Below are positions 11,380 through 63,774 of a DNA stretch of 64,000 bases, in pieces. A model generated the notes under the pieces. That model saw nothing but the letters and a program-made list of their open reading frames with translations, was not told the origin of the DNA and did no database searches. The position numbers and the translations under genes are program-made. This DNA is from Octopus vulgaris (taxonomy: Eukaryota). Location: contig OX597814.1 of NCBI GenBank assembly GCA_951406725.2, forward strand, positions 81,592,001 through 81,656,000, given 5' to 3'. Each line of letters starts with the position of its first letter. Within the stretch, counting starts at the first letter, position 1.

Positions 11380-12420
11380 TAACAGCATCCCTGTATATGA
11401 CCTGTGCTGCTTTCAGAAGTCATTCGTCTATCCCCAAGCTTCCTCAGAAGAGACCACCACATAAGGTCAGGTTTCATCCAGATCAACAAATACCATAGAT
11501 TTGATCCATCACCCTCTGTAGATGATCCAGTAAGAACTTCCAGTTGTTTTCTATGCCATATGTCACTGTCTCTTTCTCCTTCTCTTCAATGGTTTAGTTA
11601 AGAACATCTTTAACTTTCTGCCCATTTGAAGAATCTTTGAACTTCCATAACCTCCTTTTCCATATCGGTTTGTGTTTCTGGATCCTTCTAACCACTAACC
11701 TATGTTGAATTGTACATTTTTCACCTGGAGAGGACTTTGCATTCATGAGCATCCACCTGTCCTTGTTTATGGTGGAAATGAAGTCAATCTGGCAAGTGAG
11801 CCCACCAGATTGATAAGTGATCAAATAGATGGCAGGTTTCCTGCAGTTGGTATTGCAAATCAGTAAGTCATTTATATCACAAAACTCCAGCATGCCATGA
11901 AATCCATTCACGTACTCCCCAAGACCACTGAAGTCCCCTGCCATAATGAGAACATCATTGTCTTTCATCGATGACATAGTCCACAGAAGGGATTCATAGA
12001 AATGGTGCTTCTGAACATCTGCAAGTCTTACATGTGAAATATATGCAGGGATAAATGACACTGTTACATTAAACAAGACTATTTTTTGCTTAACAATTCT
12101 ATCACACACCCTGACTACCTCAGTCACCTTATCCATTTATTTCTCTGCAAGAAGAATACCTATACCACCTAATCCATCACTGCTGCTCACCCAGAAATAT
12201 TGGTATCTATGTTCCTTACTCACAAACAGTCTAGCTGAAGCTCCCCTCCTTTGTACCTCTTTCACACAGCTTCACACCTCTGCTCAAACATCTCAACAAT
12301 CTCACCAGACCCACCTTTCATTGTGCCAACATTGATTGTGGCAGCTCTGAGTTTGTGGACCTGGGAAGCCTGGAAGAGTAGTTGGGAGAGCAGGTATCAG
12401 ATCCTTGAGCTTTGTGGAAG
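11380..12420 (-). mobile_element. RTE-type LINE 5' part (APE endonuclease remnant)
   Basis: TINVGTMKG…GVGILLAEK.MDKVTEVVRV.DRI, IMAGDF, LLICNT, QIDFI, TIQHRLVV motifs. Confidence 0.85.
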
Positions 12421-38928: not shown

Positions 38929-39812
38929 CAAGGTCTGATCAATAAGTATCTGGACTGTTGCCATAGTAACAAAGCTAAAGCATGCAAAGTGAAGCTGCTC
39001 AGCAAAAATTGACCTTGAACTCTGTTGTGCATGTGCACTAAGTTTTAATGTTCCAGCTCACTTCGCTGTTTACAGCAGTGCTTGGTGTGTAGTGTGTGAT
39101 CATCACATTGACCAAGACAGAGAAAGTTGTCATGGCAATACCTGCTCAGAGGCCTACACAATGTTGCAGAAAGTGTATAGAGGGGAGTGTATGAGCCACA
39201 CACAAGTGTACAAGTGTTTCAGATGTTTCCAAGATGGCCGAAAAAATGTTGATATTAATGAAATCTCTTGGAGACCCACAACCAGCAGAACTGAGAAAAA
39301 CATCACAGATGAGCATGCAGCTGTGAGGGGAAATCATCAAATCACCATCCAAGAGTTATCAGAGGATGTGCAGATTAGTTACACTTCAGTTCAGTCCATT
39401 ATCACTGAAGATTTGGGTATGAGATGCATGTCTGCCAAGTTTGTGCCAAAACTGCTTTCAGCTAACCAAAAGGACACTCAGGTTTCAGTTGCACAAAATC
39501 TCCTTGATTGTGTCAAGAATGATGAGAACTTTTTGAAAATTTTGCGTAGGCCTCCGAGCAGATATCGCCAAGCTTTTGGCAAAACTTGATGCAAATTCTC
39601 TGCTCAACTTTCAGTCATGGTCAATGCGATGATTACATGCTATACACGTTCCTTCCAAGCACTGCTGTAAACAATGGAAGTGAGCTAGAACATTAAAACT
39701 TAGTGTGCATGCACAGCAAAGTTCAAGGTCAATATGTGCCAAGTAGTTTCACTCTGCATGCTTTAGCATCGTTACTATGGCAATAGTCTGGATACTTATT
39801 GATCAGACAACG
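38929..39812 (+). mobile_element. Non-autonomous mariner with fold-back (5' end duplicated in inverted orientation)
   Basis: TA-flanked TIR CAAGGTCTGATCAATAAGTAT / ATACTTATTGATCAGACAACG. HTH half of the transposase (ORF 39092..39589, SAKFVPKLL). Inverted arms of about 230-270 bp. Confidence 0.92.
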
Positions 39813-52199: not shown

Positions 52200-53729
52200 G
52201 CTCCTTTAGAAACGCACCTCTCCAAGAAAATGAAATGCAATTATAAAAAAAAAGTTATGAAAATATATACAAAATAAATTATGTATGCAAAAAATTAGAA
52301 AGATTCATCCATTTTTAAATATTTCATACTAAATATAAAACAAACAGAAAACGGGCACTGGTGAATATAAACAAACATGATGGACGGATACAAGGGTAGG
52401 TAATTTACTTTTACCAGTCAAGTAATTATTAACGATTCTAGGAGCCCGACAATATCCTTTGAAAATCCTTGATTGTTTTTAATCAGATTTTTTTCTTACT
52501 GTGCACACTTGTTAGGGTTAGGTGGTGTGCACTCGCTTTACCTTCACCCATTCTATGATGTTGTGATATACGACAGAAATAATTATAAAACAATAGAGTA
52601 AATATGTCTAAGACGTATGCAAGTTTTGTTATTTTTATTTTCGCTTTCAGTCTACAGAGGAAATGAACATACTAGCACCATAGCCCGGCGTTATCAGGGT
52701 ATATACGAAACTTTGTTGATAAGCATCTATGGATGTCCGAATAGTTCGTTGGTCTGAAGTTTCGGCAGATCGGATCATGGCTTTGTAAGCGGCGTCAGCA
52801 GCTTGGCGGGCTCTCTTCTGTTGAGGTGTTTCGGCAGATCGAGCCATGGCTGTGTTTGCGGCGTTAGCAGCTTGGCGAGCTCTCCTCTGTTGTGGTGTTT
52901 TGGCAGATCGAGCCATGGCTTTGTTTGCGGCGTCAGCAGCTTGGCGAGTTCTCCTCTGCTGTGGGGTTTCGACAGATCGTGTCCTGGCGGTGCTAGCGGC
53001 GTTAGCCGCATTCCGAATGGCCCTTTGTTCGGGGTTCTCGCGAGCTCTGCGGATGGCAGCACAAAGAGAAGCCCGCATGTTTTGGCTGAACCGTTGCTCT
53101 TTCGTCAACCTCGAGCGGAGGGAAGATCTGTACGCTGCGGCCCTTGCAAGTCGGGTAGAACGGTCGCTAGTAGTTTCAGATGCCTGAGCAGCGGCAGAAC
53201 GGGAAGCATTTTTCGAGAGGCGCCAGGCGGTTTCCTCGTGGGTCTCGCGTGCCCTTCTAGCCCTAGCAGCCGATGCCTTGGCCGTCCGAGGGCTGAGGAG
53301 GGTCCTTCTCTTCTTGGGTGGAATTTTGGTGGATAGCAATGTGTTTGGCAAAGGTGTAATAAAAAGGAACACGTGGGGTAAGTATCCCAAAATGTATTAA
53401 AATGTACAAAAACGGGAAAAAAGCGGGTCAGAGTGAGGGTACAACCTGACAGACACACAGACAGACAAACTGTCTTTTATATAGAGAGAGATAACTCACT
53501 ATTTGGCCCCTCGTATCTTTAATAATATGACTGGTAAAAGCAAATTACCTCCCCTTGTATCGCCCAATATGTTTGTTTATATTCGCGAGTGCCCATTTTC
53601 CGTTGTTTTATTTTTTAGTATAAAATATTTAAAAATGGATGAATCATTTATTTTATATATATTTTCCATTTTCATAACTTTTATAAAATGGCATTTCTTT
53701 TTCTTGGAGAGGTGCGTTTCTAAAGAAGC
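52200..53729. mobile_element. Long-TIR (foldback/Mutator-like) non-autonomous element hosting the Helitron
   Basis: About 230-250-bp inverted arms, 52200-52447 and 53505-53729 (CTTTAGAAACGCACCTCTCCAAGAAAA … TTTTCTTGGAGAGGTGCGTTTCTAAAG). Confidence 0.8.
52672..53491 (-). mobile_element. Complete non-autonomous Helitron (820 bp) carrying the STPR-repeat N-terminus of a RepHel protein
   Basis: Minus-strand 5' end A|TCTCTCTCTATATAAAA at 53491. 3' imperfect hairpin CCCTGATAACGCCGGG followed by CTAG|T at 52672, giving an A|T insertion site. Internal ORF with 23-aa ETPQQR..RQAA.AA..AMARSA repeats. Confidence 0.88.
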
Positions 53730-54965: not shown

Positions 54966-55359
54966 CTAATAACAGATGCCGAAAGGTCAAGAGATTTGTT
55001 TTCCCTAGTTTCGAAGATTTCAGGATACAGTATCTTAAGTTTCAGTCAGGTTAAGCTTGCAGTGGAAATGAAAGCTCCTTTATATATATATATATATGAA
55101 GCAAAAATGAAAGTAATTGAAATATGAAAAAAAAAAATAAGACATCCCTGCGTAGTAAGCTTATTTCCCAATCATGTGGTTTCGGGTTCACTCCATCTGC
55201 GTGGTACCTTAGGCAAGTATCTTTTAATACATCCCTGGGCTGATCAAAGTCTTGAGAGTGGATTTGGCTGACGGACACTGAAAGTAGACCGTTGTGTCTA
55301 TCTATTTATCTATCTATCTATCTATCTATTTGCATACATATAAATAAATAAATTAATTA

Positions 55360-55958
55360 AAGATGGAGATGGAAATAGCACAGAAGTAAGCCTAAAACAT
55401 TTCAATTTAAGAGGGAAATTAATATAAATGATTCTAAAAATTGCATAAAGAAAATATTTTCACTTTGACCGGCAGATTTAAAATATAATTTCTTTGGAAC
55501 TAAACGCTTTTAAACTTCGTATACTGGTAGAATATGTTACATAAAACATCTTTTTCTCTTGGCTTTCATGAGAAAATTCTGTAGTTTGTAAGCTATTTGT
55601 TGTTAAATTTCTTGCATTTCGGCAATTTCATCCAATCAATGACGTCTATTGAGGTGAATACAATTACTGCTGTTGTTTGTCAACAGTTTTGATGGATTTC
55701 ATCTTATCAAATAGCAGTAAAAACTTATAAAAATTTGAAAAACAGTTTATCTCCAGTCTGGGAGTCAAGAGAAGACTTCAACAAAAAATCTCCAGACATG
55801 TTCTTGACTCCCAAATTTTTATGGATATTTGATAAGATGAGATTCATTGAAACCGGTAATATTTTATTTATATAATTTTTAAAATCATTTTTATTAAATT
55901 TCTTCTTAAATTGAAATGTCTCAGACTTACTTCTGTGTTATTTTTACCTTCATCTTTT
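55360..55958. repeat. Foldback element (about 100-bp outer arms, inner inverted repeat) interrupted by another repeat
   Basis: ACAGAAGTAAGCCTAAAACATTTCAATTTAAG / CTTAAATTGAAATGTCTCAGACTTACTTCTGT; inner CATCTTATCAAATA…GGGAGTCAAGA / TCTTGACTCCC…TATTTGATAAGATG. Confidence 0.7.
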
Positions 55959-56031
55959 ATATATAAAAATTTGAGTTTTATAGTACTTTAAATTTTTTTT
56001 CAACTATATATATACAGTTGAAAAAAGATTA

Positions 56032-56655
56032 GAGATTGGGACCGATACGATAATAAGGGAATTTTTTAGAAATTTCTGTCGGCTTACTTCGAGACAAATG
56101 CATATAGTGATAAATTATATGGTTATGGACGATTTGTCTATTTTTGGCGTTAGAATTTTTTCTTTTTGCCCTTGTTTATAAGTTGTTTATAAATTTAACC
56201 TTTAAAGGTATTTTTTAATATGCTGGCCATTGATAGAATTTTTTCCGAAAAATTTTATCCTATATTAGATGTAAAATGAATAGTGTTCACTTCCGGACTC
56301 TCTCACTCTATGAGAGCTTTCAGTCCGATCGCATGTGTCTCGAGGTGTGCTGGAGAATTTCTATTTTGGATATATTTAGGATACTTAAGTGTGCTCATAA
56401 CTTAGTGTTTGCTTCTTCCATGGGTATAGGTAAGTATTTTATTTATTTCAGCGTATTTATCGCTGACGAGGAGAAAATTCTTATGAATTAACTCTGAAAT
56501 TGGGACCGATACAATAATAACGGAATTTTTAGAAATTTCTATCGGCTTGCTTTCGAGACGCGTGCTTATAGTGATGAATTATATGGTTATTGACGATTTG
56601 TTTATTTTCGGCATATTTGGCATTGGAATTTTTTCTTTTGCCCTTGTTTATAAGT

Positions 56656-56658
<3 letters not shown>
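56032..56658 (+). repeat. Partial tandem direct repeat with 464-bp period (retrozyme/pLTR-like)
   Basis: 56032-56186 is homologous to 56496-56658 (GA.ATTGGGACCGATAC.ATAATAA…GCCCTTGTTTATAAGTTGT). Confidence 0.85.
56457..56517 (+). ncRNA. Type I hammerhead ribozyme motif
   Basis: Stem I TTATCG - CTGACGA - stem II GGAG…CTCT - GAAA - stem III (A)TTG ggac CGAT - A (cleavage) - stem I' CAATAA (CGATAA in the sister copy). Confidence 0.7.
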
Positions 56659-56696
<38 letters not shown>

Positions 56697-57611
56697 ATAT
56701 ATACACATATATATCATCATCGTTTAACGTCTGCTTTCGGTTGGATGATTTGATTGAGGACTGGCAAACCAGATGGCTGCACCAGGCTCCAATCTGATCT
56801 GCCAGAGTTTCTACAGCTGGATATCCTTCCTAAAGTCAACCACTCCGAGAGTGTAGAGGGTGCTTTTACGTTCCACCAGCACAACGACCAGTCAGGCGGT
56901 ACTAGCAACAGCCATGCTCAAATGGTGTTTTTTTACATGCAAACTGCACAGGAGCCAGTCCAACGACCTCGCTCGAATGGTTTTTCACATGTCACTGGCA
57001 CAAGTGCCAGTAAGGCGACGCTGGTAATGATCACATTCGAATGGTATGGCACAGAAGCTAGTTAGCTGCTCTGGCAACGATCGCGCTTGGATGATGCTCT
57101 TAGCACCACACTAGCACAGATGCCAGACATCGAATTTGATTTCGATTTCATATATATATACCTTTTGTTTCAGTCGTTTGAATGTGGCCATGCTGGGGCA
57201 CCGCCTTGGAGGGTTTTGGTCAGACAAATCGACCCCAGGACTAAATTTTTTAAGCCTAGAACTTATTCTATCATTGCTTTTGCCAAACCGCTATGTTATG
57301 GTGAGGTAAGCATGCCAACACTGGTTGCCAAGTGGTGGTGGGGGACAATCATAAATGCACACGGGTTTGTTTTCCTGCCACTTGATTAAGATGATAAAGA
57401 TTACAAATAAAATAATCATTTCTCTTTTTAAGAAAACACACAAAAAAAATCACGTCAAAAATGCTTACACTTCAAAGAGTTGTCATCTGTCCTTTTTGCT
57501 TTCTTTTTTCTCCCCTTAATCATTTATACAACTTTTGGAGTGCCATGGACTTGAAAGATAAAAATTCTCCCTATATTTTTATGAGATATTTATGAACCAC
57601 AGGTTCTCTTT

Positions 57612-57654
<43 letters not shown>

Positions 57655-59427
57655 ACTTGTTTCAGTCATTTGACTCCTGCCATGCTGGAGCACTGCCTTT
57701 AGTCGAGCAAATTAACCCCAGGACTTATTCTGTGGAACCTAGTACTTATTCTATTGGTCTCTTTTGTCGAACCACTAAGTTACAGGGATGTAAACACACC
57801 ACCATCGGTTGTCAAGTGATGTTGGGGGACAAACACAGACACACAAACAAACACACAGACACACACACACAGACACATATATATAGATATACGACAGGCT
57901 TCTTTCAGTTTCCGTCTACCAAATTCACTCACAAGTCTTTGATCGGCCCGAGGCTATAGTAGAAGACACTTGCCCAAGGTGCCACACAGTGGAAATGAAC
58001 CCAGAACCATGTGGTTGGTAAGCAAGCTACTTACCACACAGCCACTCCTGTGATACTTGATTTTTTTTTTTAAGGGGAAAATTACTATTTTATTTAAAAC
58101 TAGCAATTCACCCTGCTTTACCTGGGTGTTATAACCTACAGCCACACTGTATTATCTGTTCCTTTCTTATGGGCAGAATTGGCACATGAAGAGTATGAAG
58201 CAAACAACTATTCTTTATAAACATGTTTTTTGGTCATTTTCTGATGAACAACACTGAAGTATCCATCTACCAAATTCAGTCACAAGTCTGTGGTTGGCCT
58301 AGGGCTATAATAGAAAGCACTTGCCCAAGGTACCATGCAGAGGGACTGAACAAGTGGTTGGGAAGCAAGCTTCTCAACCACACAGTCATTCTTGCACTTA
58401 ATATCTCTGAGGGTGTGTGTGTGTGTGTGTTTACATTTGTTGTTAAATCAAGTACTGTATCCCACTATGTCTCAAAGTTAGCAGTTCATCAAGCAGAAAT
58501 CTATAAAATAAATGCCAGATTGAAATACGTACTGAGGTCAATATGATCAATAAAATTTTTGAAGGTGAACCCCATCATGGCGACAGTGGAAAGTCTAAAC
58601 CCAGTAAAATAATAATTAAAGACTTAATGGGTTCAAATTTAAGGTAATGGATTACTAACCACAAGGTAATGCATTCAAAACTTCATATTGAACTTCCACT
58701 CTATACGATAACACTATATGTATATCTCAGTCTACTTGACTTTGTAATTTGAAGTTGAATGGTTAGCAGTAAGAAAGATGTCCAGATTTCTTTAAAAATT
58801 ATTGAGTAAAATATTCTGAGAAAAAGTTCTTTTGTCACCATAACAAAACACACACACATACACAGGTGTCTTTGTGGTAACTTGAGTTACTACAAATAGC
58901 AGCCAAATCTCTCTTAAAACACACTCTTTCATCAAAAGGAAAACACAGATTTACAGGATTTCTGGAAAAAAAAAAGTATGTATGGGTCTGCTACATTAGA
59001 GGCAACTCTAGGCTAGACAAAACACAAACAAACATACTTCATATTGAAAGATTATCTACTAAATAATACTAATAGAGTTGATGGTATATCTTTGAAGTTT
59101 CATTCCCTGGTGAAACTCCAGGTATTTTAAACATTTTCTCATTATGCTCTATGTAAGACAAAAATTGTTCTGGCAGAGTTGCCTCCCTTAGCTAAAAGAC
59201 CGTAAAATTATGTGACCCGACCTCATTTTCAAGGTTACTTTTTGTAAAAATGAGTTGTGCAAAAAACGTACTTTATTTGGTAACCAAAAGATTACTGAAT
59301 CTTTTGATACCTTATACATCAAAATCGGCAACTTAGTTTTCGAATCCATAGGGAACACACACACACACTCACACCCCATGCTTGCGTACACACACACACA
59401 AACACACATTATATAAGACAAAATATT

Positions 59428-59934: not shown

Positions 59935-60809
59935 ATTCTCCTCTATGGCAGAATTTCATCTAATACAGATTAAGCCAAAACATCAGGACAACAGCAGATC
60001 AAAGGAAATTTGCAGCATGGCTCTTGCATCTTGGCAACGGAACATATGCAGCTCCAGAAGATCCTAATCTTGCAGTTGATGACATATAAGGGTCTCAGAT
60101 TTCATGCGTTGATGGCTCTCTGGTGGATGATATCTTCAGCAATAGATCTGAGGAACAAAGAAAAAGCAGAGTAATTCTTTCACCAAAGAACTCAGACTGC
60201 CTCCTGATCAATGAAGAAGTTTTGAGACAACTTCCAGGTGACTGCCGCACCTATTATAGTACAGATAAAGTTTTGACAGATGATCCTGCTAAGGCTGAGC
60301 GCTATCCTCTTGTATTTCTAAATGTTTTGACACCATCAGTAATACCTCCTCATAAATTGAGTTTAAGACCTGGCTCAATAGTAATGCTTCTTCATAACAT
60401 TTCTACCCAAAATGGACTCTGCTGTGGTACAAGACTGGAAGTGGTAGCCATGCATCAACATTCAATCAAGGCTTCCTTGATTAGCGGCTCACTAATTGGC
60501 AGATGTGTCCTCATCCCCAGAATAAAGCTGGTTCCAAGCGACCCTAACTTGCCATTCACCTTGGAGAGAACCCAGTTTCTTGTCCGTTTGTCATATGCCA
60601 TGACTATTAACAAATCACAGGGGCAGACATTTGAGAAGGTGGGATTGCTCTTACCTCAGCCACTGTTCAGTCATGTGCTGTTGTATGTGGCATACTCTAG
60701 AGCTCGCAAACTCTCAGATGTAAGGGTTAAGGTGGTGGAGACAGACAGACAAGGAAGAAGAGAGTGAACCGTTATTAAGAACATTGTCTGCAGAGAGGTA
60801 CTGACTTGA
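59935..60809 (+). mobile_element. Helitron PIF1-type helicase C-terminal remnant
   Basis: FAAWLLHLGNG, ILSPKN, PPHKLSL, GTRL, IPRI, RTQF.VRLSYAMTINKSQGQT, LYVAYSR, NIVCREVL motifs; contains stops and a frameshift. Confidence 0.92.
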
Positions 60810-60913: not shown

Positions 60914-63774
60914 TTTTGGCAGCGGAAACAATTATTTCTCGACAAATATGCTACAAATTACGGTAAAGACACCAGAACTCCGAGAAATAGCATTAAAAGT
61001 GGACAACCTCACCAACGCAACATACACCAGAACACGTGGCAACATGAACACCCGTTTCACCACGAATCGAAGACGAACTACGGTAAGAACTCTTCCCATT
61101 TTGTATGCAAACACCCTAATGCACACAACATGAACAAAAAGCACAAACAAAATAGATATTGTTTTGAACAGACCATTAGCAGTAGAAATAACAGGAGATC
61201 ATTTTCAAGACCTCAACAGAGATTACCCACAAGAAACTGGACAAAAAACCGATCTAGATCTAGAAGTAAACCCAGATCATTTCTCCAGGTGGTTAAAAAC
61301 AATGCTAACAAGAAATTGAAAAGTAGCATACATAATACCAAAAACAAGACAGAAAACATAACGAAACCAAGTAAAGTACCACAACCAAAACGCAAAATTC
61401 ATCAAGCAAACATCAACAGGAATATAAATCATAACCAGAAAAAAATCCATTTTTTTACGTCAGGACAACAAACACCGGAGAAAGAAAAAATCCAAGAAAA
61501 AATCCAAGAGGAAACATACCCCAAACAACTGAACGTATAGATCCTAAAATAATTAATTTATCAAAAAGAGATCTTGACAATGATGAAATCCAACTTCTGT
61601 TAAAAGGACTGAAATTCACACCTACACCAACAGCCAACCACCAAGAATTAAAGGAGGATATCCAAAAATTCTGTCGAAAATTACGACTTGTAGAATTCTT
61701 CGCTAACAAAAGTAATGAGATTGATGAATCCCTAGTAAGGAATAAATCAAATTTCACCCCACCAAAAGGAAGAAATAACTACCTTGACCAATACATTGAT
61801 ATCCTGTCTAAATTTCCCCTTAGACGCAATACCAATGTTAGGCCAAACATTAGCAAATCAGAGATGTCTGCATGTAAACGTATACAAAACGATCAAACAA
61901 TAATAATTAAACAAGCAGATAAAGGTGGTGCAATTGTTATTATGGATACCGAATACTATAAGGATTTGGTTGAAGACCAACTGAAGGATACAACCTTCTA
62001 TTGTGAAATACCCGCAAATATAGACCACCACATCATGAAAAAGATCAACAACCTGATTTCAACACACCACAACTCACTTACGGATAATGAAAAAGACTAC
62101 ATCACCAATTTTGAACCAAAACCCAGCAACTTCTACGGCTTACCAAAAATACACAAATCAAAAAACATTCAACAGGCAGTAAAAGAACAAGAAAGTGAGT
62201 ACATAAAATTATTACATCCAAAAGACCTAAAACTTAGACCTATTATAGCTGGTCCAGCATGCCCTACACACCGTCTAAGCAATTTTATTGACATTGTTTT
62301 GAAACCACTATGTACTTACATACCAAGTTTCATCAGGGATGACATCGACTTCCTGTCCCATCTTCCCAAAACAACAGAAACAAATTCAGTTTTACTAAGT
62401 TTTGATGTGGTAAGCCTCTACACCAATATTCCACACGATTTAGGAATAAAGGCGATTAAATACTGGTTAGAAAAACATAGAGAAGTGATTCCCAGCAGAT
62501 TCACAGTGCCATTTATATTAGACACAGTCAAACTTATTCTAGAAAATAACACATTCTTCTTCAATGGAAAGAATTACATCCAAATTAGAGGCACGGCGAT
62601 GGGAACGAGGTTTGCTCCCGTTTACGCCAACTCTGTAATGGGATACTTAGAAGAACAACTCTACCAAGAGGTGGAGGTAAACTATGGCACTGGATTTAGA
62701 AAGTATATTGAAAAGGCATGGAAGAGATACCTAGACGACTGTTTCATAATCTGGACAGAATCTCTAAATACTCTGGAAGAGTTCAATATCCTCCTGAACA
62801 ACCTACACCCATCTCTCAAATTTACAAAGGAGATGAGTAGTACCAAATTACCATTCCTGGATATAATGGTAATTAAAAAAGACACCACCATCACCACAGA
62901 TATATACTATAAACACACAGACACACATCAATACCTAAATTTTAAGTCGTGCCATCCACCACATACAAAACGTAACATCCCATACTGCCTAGCCAGAAGA
63001 ATTTGTACTATTGTAGAAGATGCAAATATCAGGAACAAACGCCTAATAGAACTAAGAAAATTTTTGCTCAAACAAAAATACCCATCTCTACTTATAGAAA
63101 ATGGCATACAGCGGGCTATAAAAATACCTATACAACAACTTAGGACAACCCAAGGAAGAGGAAAACAAGAACAAGTCATACCATTCATAGTGACACACAA
63201 CCCATGTCACCAGAATATCTTCAACATTGCCAAAGCAAACCTACCAATCATTGCCCAAAGTAATGAATTAAAAGACATAATCAAGGATCGAGCTATGGTG
63301 CTTAGTAAAAGACAGCCTAAAAACTTGAAAACATTACTAACAAAGGCAAAATTTGACCTCAGCAACAAAGACCAAACATTCACGGTATCTAAATGCAATG
63401 ATAGCCGATGTGGCACATGCCAATTCATACATACCGGTCAATATATAAACACAAAAACCGGGAAAATATTCACAAACGCGAATATGAACTGCAAAAGCAG
63501 AAATTTAATTTACTGCATCAAATGCCCAAATTGTGAAGAAATATATGTAGGTCAGACGGGAAACGCACTATTAGAACGCTCACGTGTACACCGGCAACAG
63601 ATTAGAGACCCAGAGGTCCGTCAGATACCTTTGAGTAACCACCTAGCAACATGTGGTCGGAAAATATATATAATATTTCCATTCTACAAATTACACAGCC
63701 CAAGTGAAATCGAGAGGAAAATCAGAGAAAAGAATTTTATTGATAAATTCGAACCCAAGCTAAATAAGCAATAA
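60914..63774 (+). mobile_element. Penelope-like retroelement (RT + GIY-YIG), 5'-truncated, near-intact
   Basis: ADKGGAIVIMD, FYGLPKIHK, RPII, FDVVSLYTNIP, GTAMG, RYLDD, LPFLD, C-x4-C-x2-C and IYC..YVGQTG (GIY-YIG) motifs. Begins right after a (TA)n tract; upstream basic ORF 60914-61540. Confidence 0.95.
61435..63774 (+). CDS. Penelope-like reverse transcriptase/GIY-YIG endonuclease; frame open from 61435, first ATG at 61864
   Basis: ORF-track 636-aa ORF. The same frame has no stop back to 61435 and contains the PLE N-terminal motif IINLS…LLKGLKFTPTP…FCRKLRL. Confidence 0.9.
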   Translation, partial: PEKNPFFYVRTTNTGERKNPRKNPRGNIPQTTERIDPKIINLSKRDLDNDEIQLLLKGLKFTPTPTANHQELKEDIQKFCRKLRLVEFFANKSNEIDESLVRNKSNFTPPKGRNNYLDQYIDILSKFPLRRNTNVRPNISKSEMSACKRIQNDQTIIIKQADKGGAIVIMDTEYYKDLVEDQLKDTTFYCEIPANIDHHIMKKINNLISTHHNSLTDNEKDYITNFEPKPSNFYGLPKIHKSKNIQQAVKEQESEYIKLLHPKDLKLRPIIAGPACPTHRLSNFIDIVLKPLCTYIPSFIRDDIDFLSHLPKTTETNSVLLSFDVVSLYTNIPHDLGIKAIKYWLEKHREVIPSRFTVPFILDTVKLILENNTFFFNGKNYIQIRGTAMGTRFAPVYANSVMGYLEEQLYQEVEVNYGTGFRKYIEKAWKRYLDDCFIIWTESLNTLEEFNILLNNLHPSLKFTKEMSSTKLPFLDIMVIKKDTTITTDIYYKHTDTHQYLNFKSCHPPHTKRNIPYCLARRICTIVEDANIRNKRLIELRKFLLKQKYPSLLIENGIQRAIKIPIQQLRTTQGRGKQEQVIPFIVTHNPCHQNIFNIAKANLPIIAQSNELKDIIKDRAMVLSKRQPKNLKTLLTKAKFDLSNKDQTFTVSKCNDSRCGTCQFIHTGQYINTKTGKIFTNANMNCKSRNLIYCIKCPNCEEIYVGQTGNALLERSRVHRQQIRDPEVRQIPLSNHLATCGRKIYIIFPFYKLHSPSEIERKIREKNFIDKFEPKLNKQ

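Follow-up and report, generated by a model that had tools for sequence, protein, structure and literature searches.

The window, i.e., the whole 64,000-nucleotide stretch of Octopus vulgaris DNA that was analysed, carries a short hammerhead-bearing repeat flanked by sequences of Penelope-like elements (PLEs). The features referred to below are the following:

55356..56009, + strand: 5'-truncated, inverted 3'-end fragment of another PLE family (79–86% identity to the 3' ends of loci L192 and L194)
55991..56030, no strand assigned: flanking DNA next to the 5' junction of the retrozyme, with a short fold-back centred on (TA)5 (from the sequence)
56032..56658, + strand: whole retrozyme copy, about 1.35 units, 5'-truncated, with its 3' end at the family end site A (alignment to the 475-nt subfamily consensus)
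56032..56059, + strand: upstream half-hammerhead with GAGA for GAAA, stem III, site A56047 and the 3' strand of stem I (21 bits with the RNA model against 94 for the full hammerhead)
56048..56511, + strand: one unit from cut site to cut site, 464 nt (475 nt in the consensus; a 9-nt and a 2-nt deletion)
56186..56280, + strand: optional ~84-nt tail between end sites A (~56186) and B (~56270) (positions converted from alignment blocks)
56450..56523, + strand: complete type I hammerhead with an extended stem II; cleavage is predicted after A56511 (second stem I pair lost through G56513A)
56657..56714, no strand assigned: (TA)n microsatellite at the 3' end of the window copy, the likely target (from the sequence)
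60914..63774, + strand: young neighbouring PLE with a truncated ORF1 and an intact 779-aa RT/GIY-YIG frame (RT and GIY-YIG domains); its 3' UTR runs ~450 nt past the window

The sequence-only reading had described a hammerhead at 56457–56517, and each of its motifs was found in the sequence: TTATCG at 56457–62, CTGACGA at 56463–69, GGAG at 56470–73 and CTCT at 56492–95, with stem II extended by AATTC/GAATT at 56476–80/56485–89, followed by GAAA at 56496–99, ATTG-ggac-CGAT at 56499–56510, A56511 and CAATAA at 56512–17. The 464-nt duplication was recovered as well (56032–56197 against 56496–56669, 83.5% identity over 176 columns, E 3e-47, offset 464), together with the equivalent upstream site A56047 followed by CGATAA. 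Aligned to the 475-nt consensus, the copy extends from consensus position 459 to position 148 of the next-but-one unit and differs from it by 27 substitutions.

The upstream repeat has neither the CUGANGA strand nor stem II, and A56034G turns its GAAA into GAGA; it is not a ribozyme by itself. The description of the unit as delimited by hammerheads therefore holds for the family and fails for the window copy, in which a single complete hammerhead follows half of one. The release of a 464-nt monomer from this copy is not supported: there is one full hammerhead, its active fold lies 7.2 kcal/mol above the minimum-energy fold, and 464 nt is the deleted form of the 475-nt unit. The same energy gap is 0.6 kcal/mol in the near-consensus copies L040 and L042 and ranges from 0.3 to 15.9 over 28 aligned rows. 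Two consecutive complete hammerheads, the mark of an "active" copy in Li et al., are present in other members such as L122–L124, L126 and L226 and absent from the window copy, which lowers its status as an active copy but not its membership of the family. It should be noted that Rfam failed to detect the hammerhead, both in the window and in three better members of the family, the extended stem II being the likely reason. A strict stem scan of the window was also empty, because it demands three pairs at the base of stem I and G56513A breaks these. The window copy is likely a worn, ordinary dead insertion, a 1.35-lap product with one full, damaged hammerhead.

Exact pattern matches were counted throughout the 2.8-Gb genome with reversed patterns as the control. 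The 3' half of the hammerhead gave 2,376 matches, a further family pattern 1,841, a looser core pattern 625 and the 35-nt core 88, and each reversed control gave 0. The copies are scattered over at least 25 contigs. A single-copy unit, which would have spoken against the sequence-only reading, was thus not what we found, and its claim of a multi-copy, non-coding, hammerhead-bearing retrozyme family agrees with these counts. A hammerhead family with more than 2,000 copies can evidently escape Rfam.

The unit is 459–503 nt long across the family. In the window's subfamily it closes on itself at 475 nt (33% GC); a younger subfamily has a 503-nt unit, ~82% identical to and colinear with that of the window. 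The clustering of those segments, out of 195 distinct ones, that measure at least 300 nt yielded, with seven small clusters left out, six subfamilies of 6–55 members each that lie 3.3–5.6% from their own consensus, the six consensuses being 83–97% alike. The tandem members include the dimers L122–L126 and a 3.9-unit arm on contig C55. The longest ATG frame in seven consensus units did not exceed 68 aa, and tblastx of the units against the Penelope loci found nothing. On these grounds a coding role of the unit was rejected, in line with the earlier statement that no credible protein homology lies in it.

Twelve core positions (C3, U4, G5, A6, G8, A9, G12, A13, A14, A15.1, U16.1 and A17) were fixed in the six subfamily consensuses, and the free N7 was C, U or A. 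Compensatory changes were observed in stem I (G-C/A-U; U-A/U-G/C-G), stem II (G-U/A-U/G-C; A-U/G-C) and stem III (U-G/C-G/U-A). The sequence-only reading had made its case depend on the CUGANGA/GAAA core and on compensatory pairing in the family consensus; the core proved invariant and all three stems covary. Pairing was also scored in 28 hand-picked related copies (26 distinct), some of them found by core patterns. In the 26 distinct rows, 90.7% of the cells pair, compared with 27–41% for slid partners; three of five pairing measures beat all 500 shuffles and the other two did not (311 and 489 of 500). Given this relatedness and this mode of selection, the subfamily consensus series is the better covariation evidence. 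RNAalifold recovered the three-way junction unaided. We conclude that the hammerhead fold has been kept by selection across the six subfamilies.

In the predicted circular fold of the whole unit, 65% of the nucleotides are paired; comparison with 40 shuffles gave z values of −8.9 and −7.3, and the window unit scored −5.9. Among the pairs outside the ribozyme, 32 variant pair types break and 21 keep the pairing (p 0.02–0.03), suggesting a modest conservation of structure there. The predicted cut site itself carries A17G in 9 of 154 family copies. An excess of A>G on the sense strand was seen among the variants common to two arms or repeats (38 versus 17 T>C; 64 versus 51 among unshared variants). 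Its pooled ratio is 1.68, and per column it is not significant (p 0.065); it could reflect structure selection or RNA editing.

The insertion anatomy was examined in 76 mapped insertions, from which duplicate fetches were dropped and in which two likely segmental-duplicate pairs were kept. Sixty-five of them end either at site A (~+147 from the cut site) or at site B (~+231), which are ~84 nt apart. Of these 65, 57 run into (TA)4+, as against 2 of the other 11 and a background of 3.7%; in such (TA)n a target-site duplication longer than 4 bp cannot be read. An inverted arm adjoins the 5' junction in 32 of the 76 insertions, and of the 23 inverted insertions in which each arm terminates at one of these sites, 22 have one arm at A and the other at B. 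Partial tandems, inverted arms and a tail often present at one end only have been described for PLEs in the accessible parts of Craig et al. (PMC8557442) and Arkhipova et al. (PMC3846280), and the PLE tail lies between two internal RT start sites (Frangieh et al., PMC11167929). The neighbouring PLE family likewise shows two ends ~35 nt apart and (TA)n flanks. The match of the A/B ends, the one-arm tail, the inverted arms and the (TA)n to these PLE marks is the main support for PLE machinery as the mover, and mobilisation by a PLE enzyme, as suggested earlier for this element, is most likely.

The same data bear on a DNA-level origin, in which a satellite or minisatellite would have grown from an old PLE end by unequal crossover with the hammerhead as a passive remnant. 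Two locus pairs, L009/L010 and L018/L027, do look like segmental duplicates, and local tandem amplification is proposed for retrozyme arrays in the accessible text of Li et al. However, the copies occupy at least 25 contigs, mostly hold fewer than two units and are individually truncated at the 5' end and inverted, with the 3' end at a fixed site, and the ribozyme covaries between subfamilies. We regard this origin as highly improbable; the fixed ends together with the covariation have largely refuted it.

Meanwhile, the neighbouring PLE is Neptune-like by its CX4CxxC linker, which is tied to Neptune/Nematis and to microsatellite targeting in the accessible part of Craig et al. (PMC8557442). 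As it begins 1,426 nt into a 4,271-nt unit, its upstream repeat is missing and ORF1 has lost its first part. Over 660 nt, its 3' UTR does not differ from the family consensus, and all 150 scored copies of its family (of 17,449 candidates) are identical in the queried 124 aa; elements like it are thus common in the genome. As the retrozyme copy carries its 27 differences, the PLE must have landed long after it. The blastn comparison of the unit with this PLE revealed no shared sequence (best E 0.065). The earlier proposal of a near-intact nearby element as a candidate mobiliser is not borne out as far as a special role is concerned, since that element is 5'-truncated, much younger than the retrozyme copy and shares no sequence with it. 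Its family, or an ancestor, is still one candidate among several for the donor of the enzyme.

Among the sampled PLE families, namely the neighbour family, 30 GIY-YIG loci and 10 PLE terminal segments, no terminal sequence shared between the unit and an autonomous partner was found. Of the 30 loci, L203 contains a separate retrozyme insertion and L219 matches over 31 nt; nothing else was found in them. The 10 terminal segments, some of which (e.g., L200, L198 and L207) are cut nearer the hammerhead than the true end, gave a lowest p of 0.16 against shuffles; a likeness of site B to the end of one PLE family was rejected on this test, which is a weak one. PLE ends from three different families have retrozyme copies directly next to them, which indicates a common TA target rather than a single partner. 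In the window, the retrozyme lies at the TA end of the PLE fragment 55356–56009, behind the short fold-back; this fragment has a tail on its direct arm only and a minimal hammerhead-like motif with a UUGAUAA core at 55824–55863.

These searches also weigh on the reading of the unit as the pLTR of an autonomous PLE, with the copies as 5'-truncated stumps and partial tandems. The ends, inversions and target are as in PLE stumps, and 24 of 57 Xenopus retrozyme families are homologous to known elements, nearly all of them PLE termini, according to the consulted part of the Li et al. preprint. Nevertheless, what lies upstream of a unit is another unit, an inverted arm or an unrelated flank, never an ORF end, and an RT/GIY-YIG ORF joined upstream of the repeat was not found in the loci searched. 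PLE protein matches occurred at 4 of these loci, and the two inspected (L052 and L159) were separate insertions. When loci were chosen by the tail motif, 30 of 30 proved to be members of the non-coding family; the unit leads back to its own start with no coding sequence in between, and the retrozyme RNA model detected nothing in 33 PLE loci except the separate retrozyme copy in L203. A pLTR origin is accordingly improbable in our judgement.

The hammerheads of the PLEs themselves deviate from the canonical type. Of the copies read from the neighbouring PLE family (L062–L091; L031:1272–1316, just beyond the window), 29 of 29 have a minimal hammerhead in which the core is CCGAAGA (U4C) and stem III is palindromic. 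Minimal hammerhead-like motifs predicted in L198, L200, L207, L208, L210, L212 and L213, as well as that of the window fragment, have U at position 3 and A at position 8, so that the 3–8 pair would be kept; two of these motifs have GCAA for GAAA and one has an AUGAAUA core. No C3U/G8A hammerheads were found in the literature search.

To return to the retrozyme copies, they run through the cut site intact in 190 of 194 segments. Only 4 of the 194 start within 3 nt of it (2.9 expected from a uniform spread), so that 5' ends do not accumulate there, and two cut sites are crossed in 7 of the 76 insertions. From the few starts and the double crossings, we conclude that a cleaved linear monomer is not the usual template. 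A single case looks different: in L104, both arms of the inverted insertion start exactly at the cut site, as from a cleaved linear monomer.

Rare variants common to both repeats of one insertion were observed in 20 of 149 cases (~3.5 expected) and in 13 of 43 segments; the first version of the test gave 0 of 5,000 permutations. In the insertions exceeding one unit, no variants specific to the 5' or the 3' unit position were found. A fixed two-unit master was rejected (shared variants 25 versus 32 of 1,071 and 48 versus 41 of 1,053) in a test that kept one duplicate pair, L106/L107. The cut-site junction is clean, with 0 and 1 deletions at the two flanking positions in 61 copies. The longest of the 194 segments measures 890 nt, and a further search added only two longer arms. 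As the ribozyme has been kept by selection and the copies cross its site intact, a template cut and re-ligated into a circle, such as the coral, mussel and axolotl retrozymes form (PMC7229834), is the simplest account and, we infer, the one that fits best. The same intact crossing could also come from multimers that stay uncleaved, from jumps between templates or from gene conversion at a later time.

The long arm on contig C55 (54 kb; L237:4440–7065) comprises 3.9 units, in which 503-nt and 473/474-nt units alternate, plus an inverted arm. Its shorter units share one 28-nt deletion, and the variants are mosaic. Such an alternating array needs a multi-unit template, either a dimer circle or a linear multimer, as one monomer circle is insufficient; it is possibly the product of a dimer circle.

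The same array suits the view that the family and the PLE machinery are as described here but the template is a linear uncleaved multimer, or a series of linear monomers between which the enzyme jumps; in that case the hammerhead would act elsewhere, e.g., in trimming read-through RNA, and circles would be a by-product or absent. For an Anolis PLE, uncleaved RNA is inserted, hammerhead mutants still insert, and uncleaved RNA was the main template in vitro (PMC11167929). In addition, a 249-nt contig of run X1, whose status as RNA is guessed, matches the window locus with 1 difference over 56285–56533 and spans the cut site; family contigs occur in four runs, three of them presumed to be RNA and the fourth of unknown kind, and they are uninformative on ends, strand, level and circles. 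On the other side, copies made from a linear template cannot be longer than that template, but long arrays are seldom seen; the junction at the cut site is clean; rare variants are common to the two repeats, and position-specific ones are absent; and a canonical, compensated hammerhead has been kept, whereas the autonomous PLEs of this genome carry minimal variant ones. We consider a linear template unlikely, though a more serious competitor than the two readings discussed above.

The window thus probably holds a decayed copy of a non-LTR retrozyme that is likely to have been inserted by a PLE enzyme copying a circular RNA. The proposed course of events begins at a source locus with two complete hammerheads, such as exist in the genome, which would be transcribed. 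The hammerheads, whose fold covaries, would cut out a 459–503-nt monomer, and this would be ligated into a circle that is predicted to be highly paired, as described for other retrozymes in the accessible part of PMC7229834. A PLE RT/GIY-YIG protein would then nick (TA)n and start reverse transcription at ~+147 or ~+231, where the copies end. In keeping with the pattern of the copies, the enzyme would proceed back across the re-ligated cut site, on occasion completing more than one lap, leave the template at any position and often add an inverted arm starting at the other site. Several points weaken this account: an uncleaved multimeric transcript would also give copies crossing the cut site, the C55 array cannot come from one monomer circle, the conservation of structure outside the ribozyme is modest, and among the sampled PLE families we found no autonomous one sharing the unit sequence, unlike the situation of many Xenopus retrozymes in the consulted part of Li et al.

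A further-reaching version, which we put forward tentatively, is that circular ribozyme RNAs form a long-lived lineage that is parasitic on PLE enzymes through its structure only and has no sequence kinship with any PLE end, that its thousands of copies record rolling-circle reverse transcription from two fixed start sites on monomer and occasionally dimer circles, and that the host PLEs have drifted to non-canonical cores. If true, the circle-templated step that has been proposed for animal retrozymes would gain direct evidence from a genome.

By sequence criteria, the family is an animal non-LTR retrozyme. As in the accessible account of these elements (Cervera and de la Pena 2020, PMC7229834), it has a low-GC, non-coding unit with one canonical type I hammerhead, thousands of copies and a highly self-paired predicted circle, and it coexists with autonomous PLEs bearing minimal hammerheads. 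The octopus unit (459–503 nt) exceeds the 150–450 bp quoted there, its insertions mostly hold fewer than two units compared with arrays of up to 62-mers, and its stem II continues through an internal loop into a second helix, a form that Rfam misses. Fixed 3' ends, one-sided tails, inversions and (TA)n targeting were not found described in the consulted part of that paper. Cleavage and circles were demonstrated there for the coral, mussel and axolotl retrozymes, whereas in the octopus family both are predicted.

The Xenopus retrozymes (Li, Clavereau, Pollet 2026, bioRxiv 10.64898/2026.07.22.740005), as far as the consulted part of the preprint goes, are similar in the PLE machinery as the mover, in a length range (51–972 bp) that includes the octopus unit and in their many monomer-like derivatives. 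Their PLE link rests on co-occurrence and pLTR homology, and local tandem growth is favoured; in the octopus, where homology to a pLTR was not found, the link comes from insertion anatomy, and the individual copies look like products of independent reverse transcription. One of nine predicted Xenopus dimers was cleaved in vitro. With PLEs, as covered by the consulted parts of PMC8557442, PMC3846280 and PMC11167929, the family shares two internal RT starts downstream of the hammerhead, a one-arm tail, an inverted 5' arm, an AT-rich or (TA)n target and copies that cross the hammerhead uncut. It differs from them in a unit without an ORF, a tail of ~84 nt instead of 30–40 and a full-size canonical hammerhead instead of a minimal one.

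In a literature search that left subscription papers and repeat libraries largely outside, no such family was found described in cephalopods. With Repbase and Dfam outside the comparison, it may already be catalogued under a repeat name. The retrozyme class and its PLE link are already in print, and the insertion marks were not found in the consulted parts of the retrozyme texts. So far, the genomic return route of animal retrozymes has been a proposal, with the PLE link drawn from co-occurrence and homology and the circular template a model. The octopus family offers testable predictions for it: two RNA start sites, a (TA)n target, young two-hammerhead sources and, within this genome, PLEs whose RT/GIY-YIG frames are intact.

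Several other repeats lie in the window. At 57165–58374, short interspersed repeats occur as two pairs, with a spacing of ~485 nt in one and ~350 nt in the other; these and the other repeats near the retrozyme we take to be octopus-SINE-like, and no tRNA was found within 55000–58000. STPR repeats and a Pif1 helicase fragment were noted at 52647–53396 (− strand) and 60090–60767 (+ strand), and these pieces are presumably Helitron-like. The frames at 38993–39589 (+ strand) and 11594–12136 (− strand) are, we assume, like a mariner transposase and a LINE endonuclease fragment. Parts of the window stretch also occur in sequence runs under four organism labels, and its presence in relatives is likely.
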